64,000 nucleotides of DNA from Tubulanus polymorphus. Taxonomy: Eukaryota > Animalia > Nemertea. Below, one piece after another: positions 1,811 to 43,686 of this stretch. The DNA is taken from contig NC_134025.1 of assembly GCF_964204645.1 (NCBI RefSeq), forward strand, positions 9,982,001 to 10,046,000, in the 5' to 3' direction. The notes below the pieces were generated by a model. That model worked only from the letters and a program-made list of their open reading frames with translations, did no database searches and had not been told where the DNA came from. A program made the translations under genes and the position numbers. Position 1 is the stretch's first letter. Each line of letters starts with the position of its first letter.

Positions 1811-4800
1811 TCTGTCATCCAAAGGTCGGGATTCCGAAGTTTGGCCGACGAAGAAGAAGTTGAATTCGAATGCCGCTGTTCCGACAAGGGCATCGAGGCG
1901 ACGCTGGTGTGCGGACCGAATGGTTCGGACTGCCGTGGCCGGCCGCCCAGACAAAGGAAGTTCAAGTACGTAAACAATATACCACGGTGCCCTTCCCTAT
2001 ACTCGCCCACGTACCTCTTTAAGAAATGTCACGTTTTACTTAATAACCGACATTGGAACGAGAAAGCAGAATCAAACATACAACTGAAGAAACCTTAACT
2101 TCTGTCGTGATTACCCAGATGTCGAGATAATTTGAGATGAAACTGGGTATCATCGGGGATATTTTAGATTTGCTGTCATTTCCGTGTCACGGTAAGGAGA
2201 GCTCGTACACACGAGTCCTCAAATGAAAGTTTATTGTCCCATACGCATTAATTATTTTCATAGCTCGAATGACTTGTCATAAAACCTGATCTTATCCTGC
2301 CAACCATCGTAAGATGGATCAACGCGGTTTTTTTTGTTCACCTGTATATACGACACGTCCTTGTGGGTAAATCTTTTACGGCTTGTGAATGACTCACGTG
2401 TGAACCCCTACAGGGGACGTATTCCTAACACCATCGTCAAATTGTTTTGTTGTTAGCCCTTTAGTGTATTATGATTCTCAGATATACATATATACCCTAA
2501 ATAACTTCATCGTGCGTGTTTCTTCTGCTGGAAAAGTATTTTTGAAATCGCCCCGCAAAAACGCACTGTAGCCGTAATCACACGAACGTTTTTGGCCCGT
2601 ACCCAATTAGGCCCGGAACAACCGTTCGCGCGGGTGACAAATGGACATGTTTGGCCCGACCATGGACGTATAAGTCTAGTTTATGACGGACCAGGCCCGA
2701 TCCAAAGTTTAGCACGGGTCTAATTATTGCGTGTGAATTGCAACTGGTTCTGGGAGTTACACACTTCGCTTTGCTTTTGTTAAGCATCGAGTGAGTGTTT
2801 TACGTGTGAACGCACTCTCTAATTAGGCATGGGCCAAATTTGACTCCGGCCTGATCCGGGCCAAATCGCCTGCGTGTGATGGCGGCTATTATCGTGCATT
2901 CGTGAAATGTTCCGGATTAGTGAGACGTTTACTGAAAACTCACCGAATATTGCGCACTTTGCCGAATGTTGGCAAATTTCTGTCGTTGTTTGACTTGCTA
3001 GAGTATTCACTATTCGTGTCATTCCATCGTGATCTCTTTCTATGATTATGAAAACGGACTGCCGATATGGCAAACAATTATTTTCTTCATTTTTGCCACT
3101 CCTTTATAGTTCAAATAAAACGCTTTAGTCTGGGATGCGGTTGCGCGTGGGCTTCGTTATGAATTGTAAAAATAACCGTCAGACCAATTTAGCTGTTTTT
3201 AAGAAACCGCAACCTTGCTGTAGGTGACCCCGCAAATTTCTAAATTTCTTTCTGCATGACCTACATATTGGCGTTGTAGATCGTTGGCACATTTCACCAC
3301 ATCCGTTGCGCTTGGTGTCGGTGTACCACTCATACCGCATTCATATTACTCGTTCGTGCACGATTTGTACGAGCATATCATTCGCCACCTAGCGGATCCG
3401 TGAAAATATTTTTCATCGCTAGGTTAACTCCGCAATTTTGATTAATTTGGTGTTCTGTGACCTCGTCGACAGAGCGTAAGGTGCAAGAAATACATTCTTA
3501 GAACTTATTACATGTTCTTGGTATACGATTGACCTCATTTCAAATTTACGATCTGTGAACTCAATTGCCGTTTCGACCAGTGGCGTTTATAACCCCTAAA
3601 CCCCACGTTTCGTTTTCCGATATATATTTCATCTAACCATAATAGGTGAACTTATTAAATACGCGTGTCTATCCGATTGAGGAAGCCATTCTCCAGGGTG
3701 TGATGTTTGACTAAAAGTGGGCATGCGCCGTTTCCAGGAAAAGGCAGTCTGTCTAGGGCATCTTCGTACACAACGCACAGCGCTTCTGCTGCTGCTGCTG
3801 CTCAACGAAATTATGCAATTGATTGAGAATCATTCCGTTGCCATGGTTTCCATGAAGGATTCGATCTCATTATGAATGCATTAGACTCTGTTTCGAATCG
3901 CGTTAGCTCGTTTCGTCTGTTCTTGACATCAGCCGCGACGTCATGAAAAAGTTTTATTTATTAATTAGTCCGATTTGAGGCGAGAACATGGCGTTGAGAT
4001 GATTCGTCGTTTTCTCAATTAGTCAATTCATTCGATGTGACGATCGCGAGAAGATTATTTGAATTTTTGAAAACGCGGCCGTACCCGAGGTCATGCTCCC
4101 CTGCAAAAGCCACTACGTAAATTTTCAAAAAAAAAAGTTTGAACTATGCTTTAATAACGTGAGATAACAGTCCTGCAATCACGAAGCCGAGAAGTTTAAC
4201 AGTCCTACAATCACGAAGCCAAGAAGTTTAACAGTCCTACGATCACGAAGCCAAGAAGTTAGAATAAAGAACTTTTTTTATTAGAAATTCGAATTTTCGA
4301 TTTTCCGCTGAAAACCATTGTCAAGGAATGACCTGAAATACAACATATCATAGTTTATATAGCAAAACGAATGATACACGCTATTGCACAGATTACTGGG
4401 CGTCAGTGACCAAAGAAGAAATGATCTGGGACAAAAGTTTATCATGGGAAGAGAAACCAAGGTTACCATTGACACAAGAATTGCAGTGTGAATTTATATT
4501 TTAACTTTTCGGATTTCAGTGATTGCGGGACTTACCTTAATTCGCGACTCATTGCGTAGTTGTTTTTTTTTTACCTCGTCTTTAATAGTTTGATATAATT
4601 TCTTTATTTATAGATGCTACAATTGCGGGGAGTACAGCAATCACCTAGCCTTGAAGTGCCCGAAAGGACCGTTGCCGAAAAGCTGTTACGAGTGCCTGTC
4701 TTCTGACCATTTAATCAAAGACTGTCCGAAGAGGGAAGAAAAAACTACGGGTAACGATGGTGACGAGTCTGGAGCCGAATCCAGTCCTCAGCATATCAAA

Positions 4801-4833
4801 AACTCAGGGAAAAATGGCGACCAGGCCACGTAG
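1811..4833 (+). CDS. LIN28: Lin-28 homolog (cold-shock domain + 2 CCHC zinc knuckles), 5'-partial; exons 1811-1965 and 4614-4833
   Basis: Exon after ttttcag encodes SVIQRSGFRSLADEEEVEFEC...GIEATLVCGPNGSDCRG (C-terminal half of the Lin28 CSD plus linker). Phase-2 junction AA|gtacgt...tttatag|A joins to K-CYNCGEYSNHLALKCPKGPLPKSCYECLSSDHLIKDCP (two CCHC knuckles). Stop TAG 4831-4833. The N-terminal CSD exon (CKWFN...VFVHQ) was not found in 1-1810, so it presumably lies upstream of the window. Confidence 0.95.
2571..2886 (+). mobile_element. PIF/Harbinger-like MITE (family A) in lin-28 intron
   Basis: Terminal inverted repeats GCCGTAATCACACG...CGTGTGATGGCGGC. The internal sequence (gtgaattgcaactgg, cgtgtgaacgcactctctaattaggca, GGGCCAAATTT) is shared with copies at 51.4-55.0 and 61.9-63.9 kb. 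Confidence 0.75.
4166..4260. repeat. Three tandem copies of a 32-bp unit (aacagtcctrcratcacgaagccragaagttt)
   Basis: Units start at 4166, 4198 and 4230. Confidence 0.9.
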
Positions 4834-7800
4834 CCTGGAGGAGATAATGAAGAACGTCCTTCGTATGCACGCGTTTTTTTGTAAGACGAAGTCGTATGTC
4901 CATCGTGTTTATCATTCACAACGTCGCGTTATTCTTGAAAAAAAAAGCGTATATACCATTTGAGGAGACTTTAAAAAAATAAATGGCGTACGATATAAAT
5001 ATAGATATCGATATAAATATTAGTTGATAGGTTCCAATTGTTATTACTACGAACTATTAACTTAAAGTCTATGTCCTAGATTTCATTACATATTATATCG
5101 ACGGCGAAGAAAGAATGCCATTCTCAGATACTAAAACCTTTTTTTCGTGTAAACCTATGAAATGAGTTTAGAAAATATACATTTCCCGCAGTATTATGGT
5201 TTTACTTGGTACGGGGAGGTCGACCTCCCTGCTTGGCCAGAGGCAGTCAGAGCGAGTCATTGCATGTCGTGTCTTCATTATTTTTCGTCAGGCATAGATT
5301 ATCATTTGTTGCGCAGTGTGTGTATATTCGTAATCAGCATACGTGAAATTTTGCGGCGTCCCACAGTCAACGAAGACTCCTGCGCGCGCAGTTCTTTTAA
5401 CTTAAGCTTTTTACATCATTTTTACATCGGGCCTTTTCGCGAAATGAATGTTAGCTCGGATTTGTCAGAAATCGTCGGCTCCAAAATAACGCGCGCAAGT
5501 AATTCATGATAACGGAAATTTTGTAGGACTTGGGTTGTCGAAAACAAAAACAAAAAACACTCTTTCCCCTAATGTATGTATATATAGTTTGTAGTTGTCG
5601 TCATTGTAGATGTTCTTTTAGTATCGTTGATCAGGTTGAAAATCGTTCCGGATTCCGGGTTAATAACGAACCAACTTTTTACTGCAACCACTACCTCACA
5701 CACGTATTGGTCGTCGTGTTTGTTTGACCGGTCGTTGTATTGGGCACAAACGCGCGCCGCGTTTTCGTTTCTGTGACTGTGTCGTTTCAAATGAATAGGC
5801 GTTTTGTTTATAGCTTTTTTTCTGTGTAATTCTTACCGTAAATTACCCGTCCCCGACAACAGTTTGGCGAAGTAAGGGATTTCGTATATATTTTTTGTTG
5901 TTTTTTTTTCTTTAGTAATTTTTGTATCAGTCAACAGCAGCAGAACTCGTGGCATCATTGTTTCTATAGGAATGCTCGCTTAAGTGTTAAAGAGCTTTGA
6001 TTATGTTTCCTAGTCGAAAGATAAATCCAATCCAACAAACTTGAGTATAATACTATTATGTAAACACCGCGGACATAGTCATTGGCTAGGCATGGTCATC
6101 AGTATACTTATAATGATAACAAAATAACAAAATTGAATTCGCAGCATCTATTTACAGTTAGGGTTTTTCTACAGTCGTCGTAGAATTTTCATATATATAT
6201 TTTCTTGCCTGATAGAGCTAGCACAAATTGCGTTGGTTTGTTTGTCGACAGCTTCAGTGTGGACTCGAAGTACTGCCTCTGCCTTTTGGACAGGAGTTGC
6301 CTCACGTTTTGCTCATCACTACTCGTTCGTTCTTTTGTCCCATTCGATATGTATGATAATGTACATAAAATGTGTGCGGCCGAATTATATTACGATTAGG
6401 ACAAAATTCGGGAAATTCGTCAAAACTATATTTTATTATCAAACACGCGCGTTAAGAGAGAATGGGGAAATACTAACAGAATAGGTATTTACTACTCATT
6501 ACCTTAATTACTCCCAACTTGATCTATCATATTACGATATTTGAAGGGCTAATCTCATTGACATAAGTAATGCACTTCGGTACCCGCGCGCATCTCTGCT
6601 TTCTCATGCTATATTACTTACAAATCATGAGGGAGAGCTCCGTTCGAGCTAGCGCGATACATTTTTATATACCGAATATTAGTAATACGGATCTCGAAAA
6701 TGTCGAACGAAGTATATACGAACGGTTTCTAATCTGAACACGTCACGAAGGTCAAGTCTTAATTTCGATGTATCATAAATGGGAGTGCCGTTGTCTGTCT
6801 TGTGGCTTATACAATTAACATATTATATCTACTATACTTATATGTATATACGTATATATATATATATATATTAGCCGGTAATCATAATACTGTCATTGAG
6901 GTGATTTAATTTCGTATTGCGGATTTATTTCTTAGTCATTTTTAGAAAAAGGCCGTGTTCTTAATGATACTAATAACAATATGAATGTTTTAATATTTTC
7001 TTTCTTTTTATTTTTGCTATTAATCTATCCTGCGAATAAATGTGTGTATTATAAAGCGTCTACGTAACCTTCTGAAAATGTATACCCACTGCTGGTTTCA
7101 CGTGAGAGGACTCTTTGCTGAAATCTAACTGAAAAAAATTGTCTTTTGCGGTGTAATATTTGACACAAGTTAACTGTTATCTATCGAGAATGATGATCAT
7201 TGGTCAGCAGTATCGAAAATTTCTACGGAGCACACCTTCAAGTCTTTGTTTCGACTACATTGAAAGTTCAGACTTAATGATGGTACATCGGTACCCCCAT
7301 AAGGTTCTTCTAATATGATTGGGGTAAATGTGGACCATTTCAAAAAATAATCAAGTCGCGTTTCGTTTTAGCAATAAATGATATTTTTTAGGCTAGTTAA
7401 TGCATCTATTTTATGTTATACGGTAATACATGTTTCAAGAAGAGACTTTTCGGGATTCTTGAACGTTTGCGAAACCAACACAATTCGTGCAAATTGTTTG
7501 TTACCTTTTGGTTTCGAATCCCCAGAAATAGATATAGAATAGATGTAGATTTTTTTTTTTGATTCCAATTAGTGACGAGCATAGAAAAAAGGCAAGGTGC
7601 AGGAAACATAAATTTGCCGTCGAACAAACCGAATGAAAAACACATTTCATTGCGTAATTATTTGAACCACCGAGAATAATTTAGTTATTTGATTACGTTC
7701 TTTGATTACTTGTAATTGATATCAGCTGTCTCTTTGCTCTTATCTGCAAAACAGTCTGCGGTCTTTCAGCGGAGATATTGAACTATATCGGAGCTATGTA

Positions 7801-8870
7801 CAACAACCATTAAAAAACCACAACAATGAGTTGACTATAATATGATAAGGCGTCATTACCATTCAAAATAATATTCCAAATGCGTGGACGTTTCCAATTC
7901 GGAACTCTTTTCTGGCTTCATCTGCCTAGCTCGATAAGAATCGAAGCAAAAATTTTGGGAGTGGAGGGATCTCTTATATACGGATCTAGCTGGAATAAGT
8001 CTCGAAATCAGGGATGGCTCGCGCATAGGCGTCGTTATATCGATCATCGAAATTCCATCGGAGATTATACTATTCAATCATCCATCATTCGGAGCTACAT
8101 ACTGACAAAACAAAAAATATGATAATGTAATATTGTAATTCATTAAATCGTTTAATAATCATTCAATGAATGAAGAAGAAAAAAACATATATAGAGAGGC
8201 AGCTATGTTTATTTTATTTTGCGAGAAGTTTTACGACTGTTGATTTTCAATTCGACGTTGACGAAAAAGCACAAAAAAGCTCACTAAACTATATCGCTCG
8301 AGGTGGTACGATACAAAAAAAAGAATAGTTCATTTTAATTGCTTATGATATAGTGGCTGAGAGGAAATACGGCGTATGTTGAAAATATAATCGGGCGGTG
8401 TCGACGATAATCCCGTTACGTATTATAGTGTCACCCTCCTATCTTTTAGCGGATAGAGGCTTCGGTTGACTATATAGATATTACGATTATCATTACTGGT
8501 ACGCTTAAGTGTAAATTGTACACATAATATTTTTATACAAAAAAATGATATTTGCCGAAAACCCGTATTTGTAATTTGTTGGTAATTGCCTAGGGGTATT
8601 TACATGTAGTCGCCTATGTACGCTACTTGTAGACTGTAGTTTTCGTTCATCTTGCGTATGTATTAAATATATACTACAACTAAATAAGAGAGAGAGAGGT
8701 TAGAAGTTTATCGTCGAATTTTGAAGTCTCTTGAAGCAATCTTCCTAATAATCAGTATGTATACATATGTAATGGTGAAATAAGTAATTATAACATTTTT
8801 GTACAGATGTTTCGTGGAATGCGCGATGTTTGTTTATAATTGTCAATAAAATGCTCCCTTTTAATAACAA
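4834..8870 (+). other. Putative long lin-28 3'UTR (end uncertain; AATAAA at about 7035 and about 8845)
   Basis: AT/U-rich sequence with no credible ORF after the stop codon. Contains a let-7 site and Pumilio elements, with two candidate poly(A) signals. Confidence 0.5.
5681..5698 (+). promoter_or_regulatory. let-7 complementary element in lin-28 3'UTR
   Basis: ACTGCAACCACTACCTCA contains the 8mer seed match CTACCTCA (5691-5698). It pairs with let-7 (UGAGGUAGUAGGUUGUAUAGUU) nt 1-9 and 11-17, with a single A10 bulge and one G:U. Confidence 0.85.
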
Positions 8871-9800: not shown

Positions 9801-10355
9801 TCACTAACGCATTATTAATCGCAAATCCTCCCGTAACTCAAAATTTGAGAAAATCTCAATCCACAAAAATCTGCAAATATTTTCCGCACAAATTCATCAA
9901 GGTGCGTCTTTATAGACCGATGCCCTACTAACTTTTTCTAGGGCCCAACTTAGAATCATTATAAGTTAGTACCCCAATGTGACGTGTGAATAAGGTCCCG
10001 GGGCCCATCTAGGATCTGATTCAGGGAAGGGCTCACCCCTGAATAGGGCATGTCATATAATTCAAAAAGAGCATTCCCGGGAAAAAATACTCATCGGAAA
10101 ACCCTAACACATTTGCCTAAAAGAAGAACCATTACGCGGGGTTTACATATATGATGTATAATGTATGTTCTCGTATATGACAAGTTTCGATCGAGGTTCA
10201 ACTTAGTCATCGGATCAAGGCACACACCGGCCAATATGCCAATTCTATTTTCTAGTGTTTTCTAGTATTCTGACTGCGAATGCAGTTGGCGCAGAATTCG
10301 ACAGGCAGCAAAAATCGAGGATTGATAACAAAATCTATTGAACCATTTCATTCAT

Positions 10356-11065: not shown

Positions 11066-13548
11066 ATGCGAGGTGTTTTTCAAGAAGTTGGACATGATGG
11101 CAGCGCTGATACTATCGTTATGCATGAAGGGGTATGTATTTGTAACATGAATATGCACACCACAAAAGGATCATGCATTTTTAGTTGAAAGCGCAAGAAG
11201 AAAGAATGAGAAGCTTTTTTAGCATTTATTAGTTGAAGACGTTTTCCGTTATGTTTTGTAATCATTTCTATTTTTCACATAGCTTCCGATGCCAGAATTA
11301 GATGAAAATAGTGTAATCATTCAAGTACGAGCTTGCGGATTGTCGTTGGTCGACGCTAATCTTCTGATAGAATTGTTTCGCAAGAATCCACTCTCGCGCC
11401 AGCCTGTTGGGCATGAAATATCTGGAGTCATAACGCAGATCGGTTCTCAGGTTACGTCACTTCAATGCGGCGATGAAGTTGCAGGTACTATTCAGTCCTT
11501 AAAGGAGCAGATCACACTGATAGTTCTAACAGTTTTTCAGTAACTTAAATTCATAATTTTGGATTTAAAGCTTAGACTAGCCCAAGAAACTAGGGACGGT
11601 GGTATTTACATCTGGTATTGCTTCTATTGTAGGGTTACTTCCATTAGATTCTCCATATCCGGGGTGTGCCGAGTTTTGTGTTTGCAGTGAATACGACGTT
11701 GGTAAGAAAACGTGGCTTTTCAATCCGTAGATGTAACTTAACCATTTCCATTAAACTTTAAACCATTTCCTCGAATTGGCTAATTCTTATTTCTAGTAAA
11801 AAAGATGAACTCCATCAGTTTTGAGACTGCAGCTGGAGCAGTAGGTAATGCTATCAGAGCGTATTCGGCTTTGCATTATCAAGCGCGTTTGTGTAGTGGA
11901 GATTCAGTTCTAGTAATCGACGGGGCATCGTCATTTGGAAACACTGTCATTCAGCTAGCCCAACAATGGGGAGCCAAGGTACTTACTTACCAGGGAATTC
12001 ATTTTCGGAGAAGTTTGGTAGCTTTATACAGAGCAGACGCCGATCTTTTTGAATAGCTGATCTAAATAGCTATTTAGGAACAGTTTCCTTATATTTTCAA
12101 CAAACTTTTCTACTTCTCTATAGGTGTTAGCCACTGCAAGCAATGGACAAGAAAGGAAATATCTCGAAGATACATTCCCTAAACTTGGTAAGTCGTTTTT
12201 CTGAGCTAAGCATAAATTCATACAGGAATTTCTATTGATCCAGTCAGTCACAAGTGTTAAATAGAATTGGATTCTAATTTGAATGATGAGTATAGATAAA
12301 ACTGATCCAGATTAAGCTTGGAATATGTTATTATTAATTCTACTGCAGCTCAGGTGGTAGATATAGGCGAGAAAAGAAATGTGATGTTGGCTGCCGTGTT
12401 GGAGGAGACGGGAGGCATGGGCGTTGATTGCGTAGTAGACAACGGCGTAAAAATGTTTAATAACAACGATCTTGAGGACGAAAATGTGCGGATGGAGGTC
12501 ATGCATCCTTTACCCACTAAACATGATATTATATCGAGTTTAGCTATGGGCGGTCGATGGATAACCAGTCAATCAGACTTACAGGTACACCCAATATTTT
12601 AAACTTTATGAGCCAATTATTGACTTAATATTTCAATACAGGTATCGATCTGCTACCCATGCCCACCCCCACACATTGGCAATAAGGGTGATAAGGTGGT
12701 TGCTAACTGAAGTTCTGTTCCAAAAAAGGTCATTTTAGATCTGAATTCAGGCCTCTAGCTTTATGGCTTGTCATAATACAACATTGAAATATGAGTTCGA
12801 CATAGCAGTATCTGAAGGGTTTTTGGTTCATATCTTGGTATTGAATATAGAATTTGTTTGATCGTCAATCATTTCACCAACTGGTCATGGTTTCCCAAGA
12901 CCCCTAGTTTAATTTGACTCCCATATTTCTTCTATGAATCGCTAATAGTCTTACAGTTTTTATCAGATCAATACCAAACTTAGTATGGATGTTCAATTAG
13001 CTACTAATTCCCATTCTATAGCTGTGCTTGGATTCGATCCCTAGAGTACCCCGGCGGAACTAGATAGGCTGTTCGTTAATCGGTCTGGTATCTCTATTTC
13101 AGCTCGATCCTCCTGATAGCCAGATAATGTATATGAAGAGTGCTAGCGTCTGTTTTCTATTTGAACATAGTTGGTGTCTTTCTTCAGCTCAACAGGGACG
13201 ATATCAGCGTATCCTTTTCTCATAGATATAGTTGGTGGTTCAGCATGCAAAATATCATCTGGATTAGTTGTCATTTTTATGGCAGTCATTACACGTTTTG
13301 ATATGATTAATTCTTAACTCCTTGAGAGATATGCTGAAAGACATTATGCAGAAATTAGAACACAACTCTCTGAAGTAAGTATTATTCAAACATCTTTTTC
13401 CGTGTTCATTTCGCGCATTCAGTGCAAAAAGTAATTCTCGAAATATTTCAGTCCGATGATAAATAGAGTGGTAACTCTGGACAGCGCAGTGGAGACTTTG
13501 AAACAGTTGGATAGCCGCAGAATGGAAAAAGTTGTCGCGAGAATATGA
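11066..13548 (+). CDS. CRYZL1: Quinone oxidoreductase-like protein 1 (crystallin zeta-like 1 / FERRY4), about 355 aa; exons 11066-11131, 11283-11484, 11633-11701, 11797-11978, 12124-12187, 12349-12584, 13103-13208, 13329-13374, 13452-13548
   Basis: Nine exons join in frame (1068 nt). Motifs QVRACGLS, PVGHEISG, GLLPLDS, RAYSALHY, DGASSFG..IQLA, LEETGGMGVDCVVDNGV, LPTKHDII, LQLDPPDS and QQGRY match human CRYZL1 as recalled. Confidence 0.93.
12870..12910 (+). mobile_element. 3'-end remnant of the HINE family seen at 21.0-22.3 kb
   Basis: ttcaccaactggtcatggtttcccaagacccctagttt aligns with ttcccaagtgggcatggtgtccctggacccctagttt at 22243-22279. Confidence 0.55.
13209..13328 (+). other. U12-type (minor spliceosome) GT-AG intron in CRYZL1
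   Basis: 5' splice site GTATCCTTTT (U12 consensus RTATCCTTT). Branch site TTCTTAAC at 13311-13318, about 11 nt before the AG at 13327-13328. No polypyrimidine tract. Splicing here keeps the frame (QGRYQ-H-MLKDIMQKL). Confidence 0.88.
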
Positions 13549-13913
13549 AGGTTTAAGACATTCCTTATGGTGTTAAAGTGCAATAAAATGGACGATTAAC
13601 CTGTTCGATTAAAGCCACCTGAAAAGGCTTCTTACCAGTTCTCTGGTAATTGATCGATGGCTTCTTAACTATATACCAGTATGAAGGATGCATATCGTTG
13701 TACATGTATATCGGATCAAAGTTGTGATTTGAAATGATGCAGGAGGTTATCAGAGTTCTGATGGATATTGTTAAGAGATTAACTGAAATAAAAACATTTT
13801 ATAATAATGCTATATATTTCTGCTTTAGTTTTGGATTTTGTCATAGGCAACTAGTGCTGGGGACTCGCAGACTTGAAATGGCTCAAATACTGTTTTTGGC
13901 CCACTTGACAATA

Positions 13914-17700: not shown

Positions 17701-18275
17701 TAGCACGGAGATTCGTCATGATGGTACAAAACCCTGCCACACATACCCGATTATGAGCGTAGCTTGGATGATATCATCAGTAATTCAGATATCTTATTTC
17801 ATATTAACCTGGGTTTTTTCCATTTGTAGTTTTATCCATGAAATTTGCCTCAGCAGCTCAGCGATTATACAACGGACAATCTAATTAGACTTGGTGCCGC
17901 CAAGTTTTAGTGCGGGAAAACTGCTAATGTGTGCCTGCTACTAGTGGCAGGGTTTTGTGCCGTGCATGGCTGAGTCTAGCAATGCCATCAGGTTCGAATC
18001 TTTGCAGGGAAATACCCTGATGCTGACGAGTGACTTCGATCCAGGAGCCGGCTACCCGGAAGTTAAAATCTTTTCTTGCGTTTGCAATGCCAGACCTGTT
18101 CCACAACTTCTTATCTTTTAAATTCAGTACACGCAGTACATAATCGTATCATACAAAGATGCACGAATGGTTTAAGTACAGAGACAAAATAATCATCACT
18201 GCGAAAAATACGTGTTTATCGCAGAATTAATGGAATTAATTCACTTACAACGGCGGAAAATCTTGGAGCGGCCAT
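14796..18275 (-). CDS. ATP5PO: ATP synthase peripheral stalk subunit OSCP, about 209 aa; exons 18275-18249, 17278-17234, 16750-16640, 16548-16476, 16297-16238, 16066-15954, 15803-15717, 14909-14796
   Basis: Eight GT-AG exons join in frame (630 nt): [51 protein letters not shown]...ENGRL...[19 protein letters not shown]...[27 protein letters not shown]. These are OSCP signatures with a mitochondrial presequence. Confidence 0.96.
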
Positions 18276-18774
18276 GGTTTCCAGACGGGTCAAGGTTGGG
18301 CTGTTGCAAAGATTTGAAGATTTTTCTTGTATTCCTTCTTTTATATATGGAAATCTTTCTTCTTTTTGAAATCCCTTTTCAATTTTGATAGTATAAAAAT
18401 ACGACTGATATCTAATATCAAAATTGTAACCCAATTAATATTTTCTCTACATAGAACACTGTAATAATTTTTTCGCAACATCACCAATCTGGACTAATGG
18501 ATCGGACTAATGACTAATAGCTAAACTTTTCTATTTTATCATACGTTATTTGAGAAAAAAAATTCTACAAGGTCTTGATTATGTCAATATTTACAAATAA
18601 GTGTTTGATAGTACATTAAAATGAACTTTTACTCATCTGTGATGATCCGATTCTTGGTCGGACTCCGCAAATGACCCAGCCTTAGTCCGTAATTGAATTG
18701 TGGAGCCAGGCCGGCATGATTTCTTTTCGTAGAATTTAGTTGTTCTAAATTACCTTTTCTTACTTCATCGAAAT
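18276..18774. promoter_or_regulatory. Bidirectional promoter region between ATP5PO and MRPS6
   Basis: The start codons point away from each other with 499 nt between them (ATG at 18275 minus, 18775 plus). Confidence 0.75.
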
Positions 18775-32000: not shown

Positions 32001-35000
32001 ATTTCAAAACCTTCCAGCGCGCATTAGACGAGTGAAAGCTACTTAAAATGCCTGGAAAATGGTTTCATTTTGTAAATAAACTCCTGAATGAACGGGATCT
32101 TCCGACAGATAATAAGCGGCTTACGGCATTATTCGCGCTCGAGAAATTGTGACCGAAAATACAAAACTTGTTATTCTATTTATTTCAATTTCGTTTCGCG
32201 ACTGAATGAGAACACGACTTAAAATCGCAATAAAACAGCTTTCATCGAAGCAGTGCGGCCCGAACGAACGATAAAGAGAGCATCAAAAAATGAGGAGATT
32301 GCTCCGGACTGAATAGCGCCGCTAGCCGATCTGACCTCGCCCCGATAGAAAATGGGAGCATATGCAATTATTCAGCTTCAAAAAATACGAATTGTTTGCG
32401 AAATACGCAGTATTCGAAGTTCAAGCGATTTTACCCTCGGGGTTTTGGTGATTAATTGACTACGAGCGAACTGAGTGAACGTGGTCGCGGTGGTGAACTT
32501 TCCCTCGAAAAATCATCATCAAAATACCAGGTGCCACAAGCATTTTTCTGGTCCGGGGGTCATTCTATTGTGCGTCGAGGATGTCCTTTTGACGAAAGTT
32601 TTACTTTTACTGCCTTTTCAACGGATAACGAACCAACCTGCGCGCTATGTGGTCGGGCTAATGAAATGGCCATCTACAACACACACAAAAAAACGTGAGA
32701 AAAAACATGCGCTGGTTAGGGCTGTGCGCTGTTTATTTTTGGGCGATGCCTTGACTACACACGTGAATATTCCGAGGACATTAACGCCGCATACCGTCAT
32801 CAATCCTCCCATCTGCTTAATTGCCCCCTGACTTTGCATATATCACCGAGTTTTCGTTTGCTGACAACAAATGAATTAGTCCGATATTGCTTATAATAAC
32901 AGTTTACCTGATTTCTGGTGGAAACATGTAATTTCGTAAAGCCCGGCCCGAATGTGTGTTTAATTGATTGTGTCACCTTCCTCGCAACTAATGATAGCCA
33001 TCGTACGCTAGTGGGATGCCGATCGGTGATCGTTGCATAAGATCCAAAGCTAGCCAGATTCTGACAGACCTCCGGCTCGGCTGGTCAATTGAAATTAATG
33101 AGTATGCGTTCCACCCATAGCTCGGACGTGGCGTAAACGCGCTGACCAACAGATTGATAAATCAAGCTTAAATAATTAAGAGGTAGGGAGCCGGCCACTT
33201 CAACCGCTCTTGGTAATGAAGGATCAATGCAGGTGTGAGCGGCGTGTACATTTGTGACCATTAAATTATTAGTACCTAACAGGGACAAAGGCTGGAAGAT
33301 CAAATGTTTCATCGCTCATGGTGTCTCTCCATCAAGAGGTCTGAATGCGAATTCCAGTGAGCAATATTTCTACTCTAAAGTAAATGATATACCGACTCCA
33401 AAATTTGTTTTTTTCAATATCGCCTACCTTTCAGTAACATCATACCTATACCAAGGAGGGATTCAGCAGACTCTTAAGATCTGCTTCATAATCCACTGAT
33501 TTCAGACGGCTCAGAACTGTCCTGTAGGGTGGATCAGTTCAGTTTCGCCAGCTATTCGTACAGAACATTTTCTATAGGGCACAAAACAGGCGATTTTTGC
33601 GATAAACGTAGAATATGCCCGTTTAGCTTAAGAAGAAACGTTCACAAAAGTTCGGCAAGCGACAAGTAAAAAAAAATATAAGAAAGGAAGATAGGTATAT
33701 ATCAAATAATAAAGGTATCATTCTCTATTATACTCGGTAGATGCCAAATCCATGTGCTGCACATTGCGACATACAGCATTAATTTATTGTAATGTTTCGA
33801 AAAAAATACATCATCAACATATCACGCCCGACGCCGAACAAAACTCGCTCTTACAAACTCGACCGGTAAAAATATAGTACGCATTTATATCATTTTTCGC
33901 TCAGAAAGTCAAAGCATTCTGCGGTGGAGAGTTTAACAAACATAAAAGATGATTTATCGATAAAACATTTGCGTATATTTATAAAACACGAACATCTGCT
34001 CGTATTTATTTTGCTTATCACTTTTCATGACCACATAAGGCATCGAAGGAGTCGGCGTTGTTCGTTTTGAAAACCCGTAAAATGCTTATCTAGAATGTCC
34101 ATCTGTCTTTTAATCGAATTTAAAGCTTTCCGTGAATTTCCCCCGATCACGAAAAGTGCGCCACGCCACTTCAAGGCACTCGACGGCTTTTGACGCAGCA
34201 GAATGGCAACCGGAAGACTTATCATACACTTTCGTACAGCCCTTTTCATGCACTCATGTCCGTCTACGATAAATAAGCCATATACAGCTATAGTGTTTTG
34301 GAAAGTAAACAGGGTCGTGCCTTCGAAAAGCCCGAAAGACTACACACAAGCAAGACCTTGACAAGTTCCGAATATATATGTGTGTCAGTGGGAAGGTCCA
34401 ATTTTTGTAAATAATTGTTTTCTATTCATATTACGAACCCCGGTGTGTTTGGGGGTTGAAAACATAAAAGAATAAATGCGTAATATCCCCACTGACATAT
34501 ACTAGATGTATAGCGTTTCTAGATCTTTACATTGAAAGTGAAAACGGTAGGGTGCATACTATCCGCTGTGGGCTTGGTTTTTTAACGGTTTTCAACGCGT
34601 ACCTCCTACCCGATAGCGTGATTGTTCTTTCGTTTGCATCGATTTCTACAAAATAAACCTAAATAACGACGACACTGCCGGGCCCCGGGCTCTTATCGCT
34701 CGTAATTAAACCGTAGCCCAAAGACAGGAAAAATGAAAGCGCACAGGCGTTTTAATGAATACAGTTTTTCATATACGAACCAGTTTAACGCGAAAAAAAA
34801 AAAACTCGCGATTCATTTTGAAAGCCTTTTCATGCACGAGGCCCTTTCATCTACCGTGGTAAGTTCCCGTCTGAACACCAGGGGGCCGCCGTCGTTAGTC
34901 GGACGGCTGTTGTGAGCAGAAACGACGAGTTGGACAAAAGAGACACGGAATATCTGTAACTGCTCGCACAAAGAACGCGGCCGTAGCCGACTATTCGCGC

Positions 35001-38000
35001 ACAACAGGATTTCAATAAGCGATTACTACTGAAAATCATCGTCTCAAGTGTCAGGCAGCATACGTCAAAGGGGCGGAATCTTGGTTTTTATTTTTCAATA
35101 TGTGTATAGACTATGTTTTTTTTCTACTATTCATAGCGTTTAATAACGAGCTGTAAAAGAACAAATTACGGCAATAGAATCGAATAATTTTTGTTTTCAT
35201 GTTCGATCAATGCAATAAACATCGGTTTCACAATCGGAACTTTCCTCGTTAAAAACTTCCCCGAGGATTTTCGTGATTTCGTTTACTGTTGGGAAAAATA
35301 TGTATACAGTAAACGTCGCCTAACTCGGACTAACTGGGACTAGTAAAGGTCTGGGACTTGGTCCAAGGTAAACGAAGTTAGTTAACTAATCGACAGTGGT
35401 AAGCTTATATAATCGGATGGGCTTATGCTGATGTGGTTTGTGAAAATATCCGATTGTGAAACTAAACCATAGAGCGGTTATCGACTAAGTTAAGGATAGG
35501 AAAATACGTTAGGAAGTCATAAAGATGATTTCGTTTTAATCAAAGTTAGTCGAAAGTGCGAGTTGGCCATGTCCGAGTTAAACGAGGTTTACTGCATAGG
35601 ACATATTTGAAAATTTCAAGAGATTTACGTTCGTTTTCAAGAGAATTACGTTCGTTACATTCATAATAGATTCAAAATACATAGTTAATCAGTGGTATTC
35701 ATGAAAATATATCAGATCGCGTAGAAAAATGGCCGCACCTGATGAGAGAGGAGATAAAAAAACGTCAAACAAATTCTAGCTCGGAGCACAGTCGAAGTCA
35801 TGTTTCCGGTGGCCTTTGTCATCGTGAAGAAAAAAAAAAAAATCCCGAACATTCATAAAAATATCTTATCAAAAAATAAACTTCGAACGATACGAATTCA
35901 ATAGCGCTCAAGACTGACAGAGTTTGATTAGTATGAAAAGGACATTTTTTTTTTCGTTTCATTCAACAGATGATCTAAATTCAAACAACGAACGGAATTT
36001 GAGTCGGCCAGCGAAGATCTCGCACTTAATAAAGACACAAGATGATTGAACTTTCAACCCTTGCACAATAGTGTGCGCGCATCGAGAATCAAAACTTTCT
36101 CGACGCTGGTATCATTACCGACAACTACCGCGTTGTCATTCCGTCGGCGTAATGAGACATTCCGCGCTCTCGTAAACCCAGCCCACGATCATAATAATAC
36201 GAATTATCATCGCGGATTTCAAAATGCGCCGGTAAACATCTGCTGGTGCGCGTACAAATCGAAGAATCCGAGAATTCGAGTGAAATAATAACCACTGCGA
36301 AACTTGTCATTATTCACACATCGCCATTCAGAGCGATTTCGAAAATTCGCACATCCAAACATCGCCTCCCGAGACACTCGGAACTGACTTCGTAACGGAA
36401 GGCATCTGTCCTTTTCGAGTCGTGTGACATAAAATTTACAGTCCGCCTTAATGTCGCGATTAGAATTAATGCATCTGTGTTTACAACTACGATAAAAGCA
36501 ATAACATCAACGAAGTTTAATGCGTTTTACTTATCGGAGAAAAAACACATCTGCATGGTATGCATCGCGTTTTTTTTCGATAAAAGGGTTTCTCTTTTAT
36601 CGCAGTGAATCCACGATAAAAATACAACGTAATCGCTTTAAAAGCTTTTATTTCTTTTACGTTGTTCTAGATCGAGGTTAAATTTCACGGGAAATTTTGT
36701 CAACTTTCAAGTTTCATCAATGGAAGATCGTCGTATATTTTGCCATATCTCACAATCTGTTAATGGTTACAAATTCTTTTTAGAATTTGTGTCCGGTTAT
36801 CAATATCAAATCTATTCAAAGCTGCATCCATAGAATTTTGAATTAAGTTTACCAGTCCTAGAGTTCTATAGCATTTTCAATTAAGTGTACCAGTCCTAGG
36901 AGTTCTATGGCATTTTGAATTAAGTTTACCAGTCCTAGAGTTCTATAGCATTTTGAATTAAGTTTACCAGTCCTAGAGTTCTATAGCATTTTGAATTAAG
37001 TTTACCAGTCCTAGAGTTCTATAGCATTTTCAATTAGGTTTACCAGTCCTAGAGTTCTATAGCATTTTCAATTAAGTGTACCAGTCCTAGGAGTTCTATG
37101 GCATTTTCAATTAAGTTTACCAGTCCTAGAGTTCTATAGCATTTTGAATTAAGTTTACTAGTCCTAGAGTTCTATAGCATTTTGAATTAAGTTTACCAGT
37201 CCTAGAGTTCTATAGCATTTTGAATCAAGTTTACCAGTCCTAGAGTTCTATAGCATTTTGAATTAAGTTTACTAGTCCCAGTGTTCTATAGCATTTTGAA
37301 TTAAGTTTACCAGTCCTAGAGTTCTATAGCATTTTGTATTAAGTTTACCAGTCCTAGAGTTCTACGGCATTTTGAATTAAGTTTACCAGTCCTAGAGTTC
37401 TATAGCATTTTGAATTAAGTTTACCAGTCCTAGAGTTCTACAGATTTTGAATTAAGTGTACCAGTCCTAGGAGTTCTATGGCATCTTGAATTAAGTTTAC
37501 CAGTCCCAGAGTTCTATAGAATTATGAATTAAGTTTACCAGTCCTAGAGTCCTATAGAATTTTCAATTGGTTTACCAGTCCTACAGTCCTAAAGAATTTT
37601 CAATTAAGTTTACCAGTCCTAGAGTTCTATAGAATTTTCAATTAAGTTTACCAGTCCTAGAGTCCAATAGAATTTCCAATTAAGTTTACCAGTCCTATAG
37701 TTCATGGTTCATATATCTCAGCATGTTTTTTTTCATGGCACATGGTTCGTACATAAATCGCTCACCACTTTCTTCTTTTTCGAATGCGACGGAATATAGG
37801 GCCAATGCACCCGATCGGAGTGATGAATTGAGCAGTATATCCGTCGCTTTTCTTAGGAGAGAAAGAAACATGAATGGCAGCCCCCCTCATCCCGAGCGAG
37901 ACCGCAGCCTGAGAGAGTAATCAATCTTCGACGTCAAACGTGAAAGAAACATAAAGCCTATAGATTTTCAAGGAAGAGTGTCGCGGACAAAAATCCGCTT

Positions 38001-41000
38001 AACAACTGCCGAAATGACACAAAGGTTCGCGGCGGATACATTTTCGTTACTATCGCTGTTTTTTTTAAAAAGGGAAAAAACCGCACCACCGGTCGCGGGC
38101 TATTGATAACGCGGCTGGGTATGGCTTCAACGGTGGCGGTGGTTGCAAGACGAGCTAGCGAGCGCTAATGAGAAAATGATCACCTATCACTCAAACATCG
38201 ATAACAATATGCTCCGGTCGCCGCCGCCGTTGTCAGTTGCTTCTGATTTCCTATTCTCCCGTGAAAACGAAATGCAGATGCCGTAAACACGACTTTGTCC
38301 GCATTTCTAGGGTTATAAATGCATTAATAGGAAATCAACAGTTAGACGTTTTATACGCGGCACATGACGGAGTAAATAGATGGCGGCGCGTTGGACGCGC
38401 CTTTATTTGCGCGCTCCTGCGATATTTTGCGTTTTGTGTGCGTCAGATCATTTCTGGCAGTTCGAGTTCCATTTCACTGACCACGATTATTATTTTTGCC
38501 TTTGATGGATTAGCGACATTGCCCTGCCTTGACATGTAACATACAAAGTTGAGGCTTCGGGCACTGCATATAATACAAGCAAGGAAGCCATTGGCCATTA
38601 CAAACTTTCAATTGTAATCGTTGAACAAAAGTAAGGCGATATCATATGAAATTAAGAATCAATTATCATAGACATGACATTAAATGTCTTAATCATAAGC
38701 GTGAAAAGATTGATTTCATTGAAATATTTTTCATCATTACCCTGTTGTCAGGCGGCCACTGGAAAACCGAAATTCAACTTCCTTGTGAATCATTCTCGAT
38801 TTAAATCAACTGAGAAATTGCTCAATCCCTCATGACAACTGTCCTTTCTTTTAAGGGCGTGTCGGTACCAGCATATTCCCTCGATTCCGAATGGCCAAAC
38901 ATTTGTCGACGCAGGATTTCGAGATATCAATCATACTTAGAACGCTTACGGATCAAACGCGCAGCAATTTCGAATCGCGAAAATTTAGGGCCTAATTTAA
39001 TCGCGACGTTTTCCGCGGGGATATTTACAAACCTCTCCCTCAAATGCGAATTTGTGAAATGAATCGCGCCCTTTCGAAGCGAACGATCCGTTATTTCGAG
39101 ATTTTTTTCGACTTTCAAGACAACTAGATGATGAAAAGTCAACTTCGAGATCGCGCTTGATAAAACGCTACACAATAATTGTACGGCATTAAATGACAGC
39201 CCTATATTTACAGAGGCATTGGCTATTGCACAGAATTTGGAAAATCCAACAAACATTAATTTTCTCCATCAACAATGGTCGGCGTTCCTCTGATCAAACA
39301 GAAATTCAATCAAATTTTTAAAGCCAGTGTATAATATGTGTCAACAGTTACAAAACAGCCGATACCAATCGCCACCACCAACAACTAGTTTTTCAATTCT
39401 AGCAGTAGAATATGTTCTTCCCTTTGATTCCACTCTTTCAGTTTGTCATACACCGACCCGAGGGGCAAACGCGTTTTGCCTCAAAAGCGATGGCAACACG
39501 CATTGCCGACAAGGTCATATTTTGTTTCGCATATATGGGAGTCTGAACGGGTGAACAAAAATAGGAACAGGCCTCGGAATCCCCGGCGAGAATCTTTATC
39601 GGGAAAAACCTCTTAAAAGTGTGACAAATCGGTTAATCCTTTCAAAGGCGAAGACCGCTATGCGAAAGATATGAAAGAACGCCGGTTGCGTCTATGATTA
39701 GGAGTAATGAAATGTGTTGTCAGGAGCCAGTAGGGACTCCGCCGAACAAGACTCATTGAAGGACGGGCAAACAATGAATGATCATTTGCTGCGATCAATA
39801 CACCGACAAGCTATCACCATCACCATCATCATCTTCATCATCATCATTGGTGAGAAAAAGTGAAGATCGTTTGCACAACGAAGGTGCATTACTCACCTCG
39901 GTCCCCCCTGAAACAGGCATTGAAGGGCATTTCATAACTCGAAGTGTGTCAAGAGGGTTCGGAACACTGGCCACCGCCCGATGAAAGAACGGATAAATAC
40001 CCTACCCATATTTGTCACCTGGTTATAGGGCCCAATACCCTGCGGGATTAACACGGATTAAACTAGTATGAATTCAGTCGCTCGCATTTCGACAATCGGC
40101 GAAATTTGTATGAATGTTTTATATCTCCATTGAGGACCCGTACGATTCTTTTATACAGCGGCCCCGTAAATATAACTGATTTCGAACGAAGTACTTCACT
40201 CTCCCCTTTTATAAATACGAAATATCCAAATTCTACAAAATTTTTTAATTATGGGACTCAATAATGTGTACAACGCGCACAATGGACTGTTGTTATGAAT
40301 CCTCCGGCCTTCTTTTCAATGTGTTTATGACATTCGTAACAGATTTACGGGACTTCCATTTAACGGAGAAATGAGCCAACATTTCCGATAGCATCCCGAG
40401 GCAAACCACGGACTCCGAAACAAATTCGTAAATGTTTCACAGTCCATGACTCATCATACTTTATTTTTATCTGAACACAAACAATGTTATCGTATTGATG
40501 TAAATCGGGGGAAAAAAATCAAAAATTCAAAAATCTAAAGAACGATCGAATTCACAAATATGCTTACTACGACGACTGTATTTAGAGTGTACAAATAACA
40601 GGGTTACGTTTATTCTAGATTATTTCTCGGCTCTCGTTATGTCGGAGGAAGTCTGTTCACATTTCAACGCGGAAATGCAGAAAACTTTCATCGAAGGTTT
40701 AAAACCCTGAAACCACGTCAAAACATAACCAGAGAACACCCATAATCGAACTACGCACTCAAAGACGAAAGAATCCGCGAACGAACGCAGGATTTTCTAT
40801 TCTTTTTCTTACAACTAGACATAGAACCACCGATTTTAGCTCTATGAACTAGACAACTAAAATCGAAAACAGATGGTTTTAAATAGTTTTTCCGCATTCG
40901 AATTATTGCAATACTATAATAATCTAAGAAAAGTCTTTAAGAAGTCAAAGCCGTGACCGTTATGGACATATGTATCTTGTATTAGCAGGGTTCATATATA

Positions 41001-43686
41001 GTCATTTATCATTAGACCGTGTATACAGGACCGACCTGGAGAGTGCTTTAAATGAAAATGCTCATTTATGATAACTTGTGTATTATACGTCCCAGGACTC
41101 GCTATTCAAAACGGACAGGGATTATGCGAGTCAATCTACGCGGACAGAGGAATCTATTAAAATAAAGAAAGTCCGAGCGAGAATGTGTTCACCAGTGGAA
41201 CTAACTAAAATTCTAGCCGAACAATTCACCGGCCGAACAAAACAAGCTGTCACGCTCGCCGAATGAAAAATTGGAAAGTTATAACATCAAAGTGAATGCG
41301 AAGTCATTGAAGTCCGAGCAATTGATAGCGTCAATATTAACTATTGTCGAATTATTTCAAAATGTCCTCGCAACAATGTCTCATGTTTGAGATGATGACC
41401 ACTTATAACGGACTTGTTGCCTCAAAGCCGAGCGGCTTAGATAAACAAGCCTCGGCACGGAATTGTTTTTCGTAAGCCGGCCGCGAAATAAAATATCTCC
41501 GGCGACCTCGATTAGAACACGGCTGTGCGCGCCGACAAGCAATTATTGCCCTCACGCATCAATTGCACGTCGCAACATCGTCAACAATATTGCCGGGTCT
41601 CCCGTTCATCAAGAGCTCGGCGAGATCGAATAGATAAACTAGATCGAGAAAACTTTCTTCTGGCCAAATGCATTTTAACAATCGACACGACAATAGATAC
41701 TTCACAAAAGAAATGGCAAAACTAAAAGTGACCAAGATGATGTTATATATCTACATATATCGGCAATGATTTTTACATCTATATACTTTTATTCAACAAG
41801 GTGGCCGCTTCCACCTATCTACAAATCCCATTTAGCTTTCCATGATTTTTCCATGTGATTATATAAAATTCCCTGAGTGAATCGAGAGAAATTTCTAGGT
41901 TTAAAACATTAGAATCTATTCATTTTTCATGTATCGCGAATTGGTAAGGAAACGCGTTATAAATAGCAAATCCAAATTCCCCGAGTTTTCCAGGTTTTGT
42001 CAAATTCCCAGACTTTTTTTGAGTTTTAAAGGTTAGCGTGGCCACCCTGCGCAAAACTTAGTCAAAATTTAAGAAATTAGATCGTGAACAAATCGTTACT
42101 TACGTTACTGAGAGTCGACGACGGTTTCAGAACGAGATTTCGCGGTAATGTCATTTCAGCCCGGTTCGGCGCCACCTCCGGGCACGCCTTGTCCGGCACG
42201 ATGTACGTGCATATCTTCTGAAATTCGCTTTCTTTCGTATTGCTTATGTCCAGGCCATCTTCCATGCTGTCTGTAAGATATTCGAAGAAATAGATTTCCT
42301 TAAAAAATTTATTTAAAACCCACTGTATACAGATAATACGTTTAAAATGAAATATATCGGATCAAGAATTAAAAAAACAAGACACGCCGTCTGAGACTCT
42401 CTCTAGAGACCATCGTCAGGTTAATTTGTATATATACAGTAGACTCTGCTTGGGTTGGATACGATCAACTCGGATAACTGTTCAACTCAGATGTTTGTTA
42501 TGGCTGTGACGCTATTCAAGAGATACATAATATCCAACTCAGATATCACTCAAGTCCGACATATTTTCATGGTCCGAAGAGGTCCGACTTGGGCAGAGTC
42601 TAGTGTAGCAGGTTTTCAACTTAAAACATTATCTCCTCATTATAGAGTGGCTTTTCTACTACTTTGAACGGGATATTCGAACATTGCAAAAATCATTCGT
42701 AGCCAGATTTGTGTTTCATTATCGATATAACTATAAGTTACACGATATATACACATATGCTTTGAAAGGAACTTTTGTCACGCGGGTTAGATCTTCAAAA
42801 CGTACCCGCGGGCAATTTTTGCCGGGAGAATTGTTAATCAATTTCATTCCCATTGGCAGAGACTTTCACTAGTCTTTGCAACAGTACAGTAGAAGTTTTA
42901 TAATCAACAACCTAGAAAGAAACTAGATCTCCTCGATTATTCACTCCAGAGGTAAAGAAAATTTCTGCACTTGCTTCGGAATTCAAAAAACGTATGTATA
43001 AGGTTTCACCTGTGCGACCATTACACACGTTTAATGGGTGTCAATTTCGAAAAATAGCCAGTCGGAGAAAACAAGTGGATCGGAACTGTCATAAAAGTCG
43101 TCTTGTCAACTTTTGCTGAACTTCATTACACGGTCTTGCCAGCGTATTAAATAAATTATTAAATCAAATGTTGTTTTTCGTCGGCGCGCACAAGAGGTGT
43201 ACGTTACGGTCAGCGCGGAATGGAAATAAACAATCAAGGGTCGAAACGGGGAAAAGTGATCAAAGATTATTGGAACAGAAGTGAAAAAACAACCGACCAC
43301 TACTTTCAATGCTCAAAAGAAACCCGACTAAGAAAAGTAATCAAAGGTGATAAAAATTCAACCTTTTCACTACTATAAGGACTGTCATAGTTAATCAAAA
43401 TCTACATAAAAAATGCTATTCCATTTGAGAGAGAATCACTAACAAAATTGTTAATTCATATTTGAAATAATCAAATTTCACCATAAAAAAAATTAACGAT
43501 TTCAACAATTTCAAAAAGTTACGAAAATGTGCGTCAAATATCGACGACTAATCGAAATATCCATAATTCTAACTAATATTCCATAATAATACGGATTATT
43601 TTTGAGAAATAATTTTCGAATTCGGTAAAAATCGAGCGCTTACCTGCGTGAGAAGGCAGTAAACTCGCATCTGAGTGAACAGTCAT
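26081..43686 (-). CDS. PRDM1: PR/SET domain zinc-finger protein 1 (Blimp-1), about 816 aa; exons 43686-43644, 42270-42104, 30601-30482, 28617-28365, 27948-26081
   Basis: The PR domain is split over exons: [12 protein letters not shown]...[12 protein letters not shown] | [21 protein letters not shown]...NKKYFWR | [29 protein letters not shown]...QNLIACQ...IYFYTIKPI...[17 protein letters not shown]. The last exon has a Pro/Ser-rich region, [13 protein letters not shown] and five C2H2 fingers starting [22 protein letters not shown]. Junction phases 1,0,0,1 are consistent (2451 nt). The first short exon is the least certain; ATG 42265 is an alternative start. Confidence 0.95.
28033..28309. mobile_element. 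hAT-like MITE (family B) in PRDM1 last intron
   Basis: TIRs CAGTGTGGCCACT...AGTGGCCACTCTG. The internal ttccatgatttttccatgtgatta/aattccc/ttttccagg sequence is shared with 41797-42049. No clear 8-bp TSD. Confidence 0.6.
35307..35594. mobile_element. Tc1/mariner (pogo-like) MITE
   Basis: TA-CAGTAAACGTCGCCTAACTCGGAC...GTCCGAGTTAAACGAGGTTTACTG inverted termini. Confidence 0.7.
36829..37703. repeat. Minisatellite, about 23 copies of a 38-bp unit TTCTATAGCATTTTGAATTAAGTTTACCAGTCCTAGAG, in PRDM1 intron 2
   Basis: Period of 38 verified unit by unit (AAG anchors at 37113, 37151, 37189...). No spacers. Confidence 0.97.
41797..42049. mobile_element. hAT-like MITE (family B) second copy
   Basis: caaggtggccgct...gcgtggccaccctg termini; internal sequence homologous to 28033-28309. 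Confidence 0.6.
42437..42605. mobile_element. Tc1/mariner (pogo-like) MITE
   Basis: TA-CAGTAGACTCTGCTTGGGTTGGA...TCCGACTTGGGCAGAGTCTAGTG-TA. Confidence 0.7.

Follow-up and report, generated by a model that had tools for sequence, protein, structure and literature searches.

Likely remnant of an ancestral bilaterian neighbourhood around lin-28 and Blimp-1 in the nemertean Tubulanus polymorphus

The window analysed here is a 64,000-nucleotide stretch of the Tubulanus polymorphus genome (contig NC_134025.1), which contains, in 5' to 3' order, lin-28 (+), CRYZL1 (+), ATP5PO (-), MRPS6 (+) and PRDM1/Blimp-1 (-). The lin-28 stop codon ends at 4833 and that of PRDM1 begins at 26081-26083, leaving 21,247 bases and three genes between them. 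An earlier note on this DNA had described the outer genes as convergent, about 21 kb apart and enclosing the other three, and exon mapping and the stop codons bear this out. Contigs from sequencing run X3 join exons of CRYZL1, ATP5PO and MRPS6 at GT..AG introns and also span one PRDM1 intron; runs X2-X4 come from a single sample of a single study, and the assembly may derive from them.

Of the lin-28 coding exons, two are present; the first did not turn up within the window. The exon at 1811..1965 (+) encodes the second half of the cold-shock domain and a linker (Pfam CSD, E 4.5e-7; splice sites read), and is 100% identical over 1811-1966 to record P0240, 'protein lin-28 homolog'. The last coding exon (4614..4833, +) encodes two CCHC knuckles (Pfam zf-CCHC), terminates in the stop codon at 4831-4833, and matches the same record at 97% over 4609-4830 (tblastn). 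P0240 itself contains a cold-shock domain and a CCHC knuckle by Pfam, and a cold-shock domain followed by CCHC zinc knuckles is the arrangement of the lin-28 family. A predicted 3' UTR of about 4 kb (4834..8860, +) is drawn to the end of an X3 contig (7479-8858) beside an AATAAA at 8845, with no single contig tying that segment to the stop codon. Within it, 5691-5698 match the let-7 8-mer and 8008-8014 a miR-125 7-mer, with chances of 1.3% and 13.5%, respectively, in 1000 resamples. A miR-125/lin-4 8-mer match falls inside the last exon, at 4803-4810, in a motif scan.

The three middle genes have housekeeping functions. CRYZL1, quinone oxidoreductase-like protein 1 (11066..13548, +), was traced across its exons by tblastn of named records and by seven intron joints in X3. 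ATP5PO, the OSCP subunit of ATP synthase (14796..18275, -), has a Pfam OSCP match in three of five exon frames, with six X3 intron joints listed. MRPS6, mitochondrial ribosomal protein S6 (18775..20529, +), has two X3 intron joints and a Pfam Ribosomal_S6 match in one of three exon frames (E 5e-5, below the curated cut-off), and lies tail-to-tail with PRDM1. The start codons of ATP5PO and MRPS6 are head-to-head across 499 bases (18276..18774), likely a bidirectional promoter.

The PRDM1/Blimp-1 coding sequence (26081..42265, -) comprises four exons encoding a PR domain and five C2H2 fingers (Pfam PRDM2_PR, SET, zf-C2H2); four blocks of record P0096 align to it exactly between 42265 and 26084 (minus strand). 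The PR domain is closest to PRDM1 (E 4.6e-33, versus 8.7e-16 at best for other PRDMs), its top solved-structure match is also PRDM1, and together with the five fingers this identifies the gene as PRDM1/Blimp-1. A homologue search with the zinc fingers as query was dominated by poly-finger proteins; no PRDM1 relatives were found in prokaryote genome contigs, and no gene model among 509 proteins fuses PRDM1 to a neighbour. A short upstream coding exon of 43 nt is predicted at 43644..43686 (-) from an ATG, a GT donor and a phase in frame with the next exon; its ATG coincides with 43686, where the block of the earlier note ended. The predicted 3' UTR of 2.6 kb (23489..26080, -) follows X3 contigs to 23489, beside AATAAA motifs at 23485 and 23561. 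The first intron is 11.5 kb, and the 20 kb upstream (43795..63794) are gene-poor and likely regulatory, with no Pfam match in 49 of the 51 ORFs of at least 70 aa, a scan in which short exons could be missed. A developmental regulator, a large non-coding territory and unrelated adjoining genes together give the locus the composition of a genomic regulatory block. Since three genes and about 14.6 kb separate the predicted UTR ends of lin-28 and Blimp-1, explanations by a common promoter, by readthrough or by antisense overlap were rejected.

A lin-28 protein search returned four proteins, and the positions of lin-28 in other species were therefore taken from publications. In both Drosophila melanogaster and D. 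mojavensis, Blimp-1 flanks lin-28 upstream (PMC12402932, accessible part), and the two are also neighbours in the portions seen of PMC4071072 and of PMC12449766 (Table 1). No gene separates them in Drosophila. Blimp-1 and lin-28 are the genes nearest to one predicted fly element, according to the available part of its source. In Anopheles gambiae, the C2H2 zinc-finger gene AGAP006592 is presumably Blimp-1, and the two genes are thus probably linked there too. According to the supplement of PMC3126782, this gene is the next one to lin-28 (AGAP006591, 2L:34,412,588-34,417,188), 12.3 kb upstream on the same strand. None of the four other neighbours checked is still near lin-28 in that genome: MRPS6 and OSCP lie on 2R, as does a separase-domain gene, and an Eaf6-domain gene is 4.3 Mb off (PMC3126782 supplement).

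In vertebrates, lin28a and crybg2 adjoin znf683, a Blimp-1 paralogue, in elephant shark, an arrangement described as fully conserved in coelacanth, human and mouse in the accessible text of PMC7662092, and cattle LIN28A and ZNF683 are consecutive in a gene list (PMC12587522). The LIN28A-ZNF683 adjacency named in the earlier note is thereby borne out. The same accessible text reports that znf683 is seemingly absent from chicken and Xenopus, and that prdm1a retains little besides atg5 in pike and salmonids, so the link is dispensable. The cattle order MRPS6-SLC5A3-ATP5O-ITSN1-CRYZL1, within 1 Mb, agrees with the proposed mammalian clustering of the three middle genes and preserves their order as found in the window. 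In human, LIN28A is on chr1 and LIN28B at chr6:105.40-105.53 Mb. PRDM1 would lie near LIN28B, and 21q22 may be paralogous with 1p36/6q. Cattle data show which genes the 1p36-like and 21q22-like segments contain; the Lamb 2021 supplement gave no match on three-segment paralogy.

Elsewhere the block recurs in pieces. At locus L060, which groups with spiralians, MRPS6 and PRDM1 lie tail-to-tail, as they do in the window. CRYZL1 and PRDM1 are 19 accession numbers apart on one contig in a leafhopper, a hint of proximity, and 394 apart on one 37-Mb scaffold in Owenia, where the hint is that they seem distant. Distance between RefSeq accession numbers was discarded as a proxy for gene order, because about 18,000 numbers separate lin-28 and PRDM1 in the window itself; the gap of about 1,500 in Lineus is consequently uninformative, and a gap of 96 on one Dermacentor contig was set aside. 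Among 80 metagenome Blimp-1 loci, eight of them longer than 10 kb, none showed lin-28. The proposal of a single intact block is weakened, because the housekeeping genes have left the neighbourhood in Anopheles and, in Owenia, a large distance seems to separate CRYZL1 from PRDM1.

The proposed ancient linkage of lin-28 and Blimp-1 fares better, since it recurs in Drosophila, probably in Anopheles, and in vertebrates (lin28a/znf683). Because the genes are neighbours in a ribbon worm, fruit flies and vertebrates, the pairing likely predates the fly-human split, and the five genes in the window are likely what is left of a neighbourhood of the bilaterian ancestor. The published standard for a conserved pair is at most four intervening genes in at least four lineages (Irimia 2012, PMC3514665). 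Here three genes intervene in the window and none in Drosophila, and the genes are consecutive in cattle; the linkage is found in three lineages (nemertean, Diptera and vertebrates), one fewer than that standard asks for. With the four-lineage cut-off, randomised gene orders yielded 0.015 conserved pairs for each genome, and the pairs that survive in flies are enriched in ones that include a developmental gene (PMC3514665). No publication naming lin-28/Blimp-1 as an ancient pair was found. The main text of PMC3514665, in the part available, does not name the two genes, and its supplementary list was outside the scope of the search; the supplements of PMC11136973 and PMC9977687 (each searchable in part), PMC8040251, PMC4595640 and PMC6961396 and the text of PMC2447486 gave no match, and literature on LIN28B with PRDM1 at 6q21, or on sea urchin identifiers, yielded nothing useful. 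As synteny alone, lin-28/Blimp-1 is one among several hundred ancient gene pairs.

The explanation we favour, with a little better than even confidence, is an ancestral bilaterian neighbourhood whose lin-28/Blimp-1 core has been kept by putative shared or interleaved enhancers rather than by let-7. Blimp-1, a developmental transcription factor, would command a large regulatory territory, namely the long first intron and the gene-poor upstream region; some of its enhancers may be located within lin-28 or past it, or may serve the two promoters together, in which case a break between the genes would be selected against. The core is probably held by such cis-regulatory entanglement, with CRYZL1, ATP5PO and MRPS6 as putative passengers, free to leave. 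That relative orientation varies by lineage is compatible with enhancers and rules out a common promoter or an antisense overlap. Vertebrate duplications followed by reciprocal loss could then have produced lin28a/znf683, LIN28B...PRDM1 and CRYZL1-ATP5PO-MRPS6. A bolder and rather doubtful proposal is that the two genes form a temporal-identity cluster inherited from the ancestor of fly, ribbon worm and vertebrate, in which one stage-specific enhancer set times both, the let-7 site on Blimp-1 being lineage-limited; if so, gene order itself would be part of the heterochronic and germline circuit.

Entanglement by enhancers must be weighed first against a neutral remnant, in which neighbours in the bilaterian ancestor have simply not yet been broken apart and nothing functional holds them, an account that is possible without being the one we expect. 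It would suit the retention of the passenger genes in nemerteans, the loss or loosening of the link in chicken, Xenopus and teleosts (PMC7662092, accessible text), the varying orientation, and the roughly 600 conserved ancestral pairs of which many have no known cause (PMC3514665); a blastn comparison of the window with 80 distant Blimp-1 loci likewise found no non-coding similarity. However, the pair seems to be kept in Diptera while the other neighbours that were checked, four of four, have dispersed among fly, mosquito and nemertean, and pure decay would not favour lin-28/Blimp-1.

It is unlikely that the genes are linked because they share one timing or germline relay, as a 'Lin28-let-7-Blimp1' block would imply. 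Blimp-1 appears among the cited let-7 targets of the Lin28 network; in flies, deficiencies that take out both genes show a much reduced penetrance (1% and 5%) of the lin-28 ovary phenotype, hypothetically credited by the authors to Blimp-1 (both PMC4071072, accessible part). A let-7 seed match also occurs downstream of Blimp-1 in 12 of 15 rows, all from one arthropod clade, and the window's lin-28 bears its let-7 8-mer. However, these deficiencies delete several genes, and the seed match is absent from 21 of 21 loci outside that clade, where several of the regions are not true UTRs. The let-7 component of the claimed block is not borne out in the window either: no let-7 gene matches Rfam at gathering score (at E<=1 a single weak mir-610 match lies inside a repeat), and the PRDM1 3' region (23480-26080) has no let-7 seed match of 6, 7 or 8 bases. 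The relay consists of diffusible RNA and protein acting in trans, which requires no linkage, and so could not hold gene order by itself. Adjacency gained independently in flies, nemerteans and vertebrates from one ancestral chromosome is very improbable: order and orientation do vary and the pair was chosen after the fact, but with about 14,000 fly genes the chance that any of the window's ten gene pairs is adjacent in fly is roughly 0.1-0.2%, or below 1% if both genes are confined to one arm, and must recur in vertebrates, and further pairs of the block recur too (MRPS6/PRDM1 in L060, the cattle order).

Should shared regulation indeed hold the pair together, a cis link would exist between two much-studied regulators of timing and the germline, and it is testable at once in Drosophila, the genes being direct neighbours there. 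Experiments that use deficiencies or extensive deletions at fly lin-28, and possibly those at LIN28A/ZNF683, risk disturbing both genes, a confound that one fly paper has met.

The LIN28-let-7-BLIMP1 axis that West is said to have described in 2009 for mammalian germ-cell specification involves the same two proteins, and the window's lin-28 has let-7 and miR-125 seed matches; unlike the arrangement here, that axis acts in trans, and the window has neither a let-7 gene nor a let-7 site on Blimp-1. The duplicated vertebrate prdm1/znf683 segments of PMC7662092 share the gene family and the placement of lin28a next to znf683, whereas that study, in its accessible text, concerns vertebrates alone with amphioxus as a tree outgroup, does not single out lin28 and makes no extension to protostomes. 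The Drosophila locus, in the accessible parts of PMC4071072 and PMC12402932, has the same pair side by side and a proposed genetic interaction between them; it differs in having nothing between them and Eaf6 and Separase as outer neighbours, and is treated there purely as local fly gene order. The closest parallel in kind is with the conserved pairs and regulatory blocks of Irimia 2012 (PMC3514665), such as Otx-Ehbp1 and Isl-Scaper, in which unrelated genes lie within four intervening genes of each other in distant phyla, and one of the two encodes a transcription factor of development and has extensive non-coding space. Unlike those pairs, lin-28/Blimp-1 has no fixed orientation across the three lineages shown, and joins two developmental regulators rather than a target and a housekeeping bystander.

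The lin-28/Blimp-1 gene pair is real and probably ancient. The window is animal DNA, and its lin-28 and PRDM1 (Blimp-1) genes are 100% matches to the protein records P0240 ('protein lin-28 homolog [Tubulanus polymorphus]') and P0096 ('PR domain zinc finger protein 1-like [Tubulanus polymorphus]'), respectively. The forward strand carries lin-28 (exons 1811-1965 and 4614-4833, with no first coding exon found within the window), CRYZL1 (11066-13548) and MRPS6 (18775-20529), and the reverse strand ATP5PO (18275-14796) and PRDM1 (42265-26081, plus a further exon predicted at 43686-43644). The earlier note read the sequence correctly. Between the lin-28 and PRDM1 stop codons lie 21,247 bases. In contigs from sequencing run X3 (run type not on record), exons of CRYZL1, ATP5PO, MRPS6 and PRDM1 are spliced together across canonical introns. 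ATP5PO and MRPS6 are head-to-head, with 499 bases between them, and are likely an ordinary bidirectional-promoter unit, separate from the lin-28/Blimp-1 link. In both nemertean lin-28 proteins the linker from the cold-shock domain to the first CCHC knuckle (1940-1965 and 4614-4620 in the window) is shorter by six residues than its mussel and mite counterparts, which may alter the grip on pre-let-7. Interspersed repeats occur at 2600-2900, 21000-22350, 53300-55100, 61900-62200 and 63500-63800, the last three with junk ORFs of similar appearance; X3 contig depth is very high in repeats at 2164-3491 and 20756-22362, and simple repeats (10351-10433 and 58756-58980) translate to YL and YI runs.

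Among vertebrates, LIN28B maps to chr6:105.40-105.53 Mb (PMC3916362). PRDM1 presumably lies about 1 Mb further along chromosome 6, and we take 21q22 to be a paralog of segments on 1p36 and chromosome 6. PMC7662092 describes znf683, the vertebrate Blimp-1 paralog, as still adjoining lin28a in elephant shark, and the lin28a/znf683 region as fully conserved between coelacanth, human and mouse. Against the linkage, the same paper shows znf683 as seemingly missing in chicken and Xenopus, while in pike and salmonids only atg5 is left of the synteny around prdm1a. In cattle, LIN28A, ZNF683 and CRYBG2 stand in a row (PMC12587522), and the order within 1 Mb elsewhere is MRPS6, SLC5A3, ATP5O, ITSN1, CRYZL1 (PMC3689702).

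The pair has apparently survived selectively in Diptera. The Anopheles C2H2 gene next to lin-28 is presumably Blimp-1; AGAP006590 'still life' we take to be the TIAM1/2 ortholog, human TIAM1 is presumably at 21q22.11, near CRYZL1-ATP5PO-MRPS6, and TIAM/still life may be a further member of the ancestral neighbourhood. In the PMC3126782 supplement the C2H2 gene, unnamed there, is on the same strand as lin-28 and 12.3 kb upstream, and AGAP006590 is the next gene after lin-28. None of the four other neighbours checked in its table is still near lin-28; MRPS6, OSCP and a separase-domain gene are on another arm, and an Eaf6-domain gene is 4.3 Mb away. A 'quinone oxidoreductase' gene at 1.6 Mb has a label too general to equate with CRYZL1. 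In D. melanogaster and D. mojavensis, Blimp-1 borders lin-28 on its upstream side (PMC12402932). PMC4071072 terms Blimp1 a neighbouring gene of Drosophila lin-28, and gives penetrances of 1% and 5% for the lin-28 ovary phenotype over deficiencies removing lin-28, Blimp-1 and other genes; PMC12449766 tabulates a predicted enhancer with Blimp-1 and lin-28 as nearest genes.

In metagenome Blimp-1 loci (the best 80 of 153), MRPS6 is tail-to-tail with Blimp-1, as in the window, once, in L060, a locus that clusters with the spiralians, on a long branch (support 99/95). Against the linkage, these 80 loci, of which only eight exceed 10 kb and whose flanks end at 10 kb, yielded no lin-28, CRYZL1 or ATP5PO, and their non-coding sequence showed no similarity to that of the window. 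CRYZL1 and PRDM1 are 19 accession numbers apart on one leafhopper contig, which speaks for the linkage, and 394 apart on the same Owenia scaffold, which speaks against it; both values are hints only, because accession distance failed a control in Tubulanus polymorphus.

Present in three major lineages (nemertean, Diptera and vertebrates), the lin-28/Blimp-1 linkage is very probably ancestral homology, and on balance we lean towards regulatory constraint as what has held the pair together. Such constraint would act in cis, in the manner of a genomic regulatory block centred on Blimp-1; the first intron of Blimp-1 is 11.5 kb, and the 49 ORFs scanned, of 51 in the 20 kb upstream, have no Pfam matches. 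Orientation is convergent in the window, tandem in Anopheles and presumably divergent in human, and this variability excludes a shared promoter; the gap between the lin-28 and PRDM1 UTR ends excludes antisense overlap. A neutral remnant of ancestral gene order, which the variable orientation favours and the apparent selective survival in Diptera speaks against, is a less likely explanation.

A let-7 pathway cluster is improbable, and let-7 drops out of the Lin28-let-7-Blimp1 block that had been proposed. There is no let-7 gene in the window, since Rfam gave no matches at gathering scores and, at E<=1, a single weak and unrelated one (mir-610, 54505-54604, within an interspersed repeat). X3 contigs place the PRDM1 3' end at about 23489, beside AATAAA signals, and the 2.6-kb 3' region lacks let-7 seed matches of any length from 6 to 8 bases, an absence that is real but not surprising, because a 7-mer is expected by chance in just 11% of resamples. 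Motif scans with the let-7 and miR-125 seeds placed a let-7 8-mer 858 bases downstream of the lin-28 stop (chance 1.3% by resampling) and, also on the lin-28 side, miR-125 matches at 4803 and 8008. The first of these, a miR-125/lin-4 8-mer (4803-4810), falls inside the coding region of lin-28, some 20 bases short of the stop codon. Feedback on lin-28 is known, and the sites at lin-28 fit this rather than a local link from let-7 to Blimp-1. Elsewhere, let-7 seed matches follow the Blimp-1 stop in 12 of 36 loci scanned (L022, L026, L028, L034, L035, L037, L038, L039, L040, L043, L070 and L071) versus 3.35 expected, 11 with an 8-mer and one with a 7-mer. All 12 are within one 15-row arthropod clade (support 99/94), at a guess copepods, and in six the match is inside a 100-170 base element of 76-88% identity. 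These sites are one inherited event, but they suggest that an invertebrate Blimp-1 is a let-7 target.

Coincidence is very improbable. Among the literature matches listed, which cover open-access papers and not the Irimia 2012 supplementary pair list, none showed a statement of cross-phylum lin-28/Blimp-1 linkage. Of the tests for ancient microsyntenic pairs in Irimia 2012 (PMC3514665), lin-28 and Blimp-1 fall within the first (<=4 intervening genes), and three lineages are in hand for the second (four or more).
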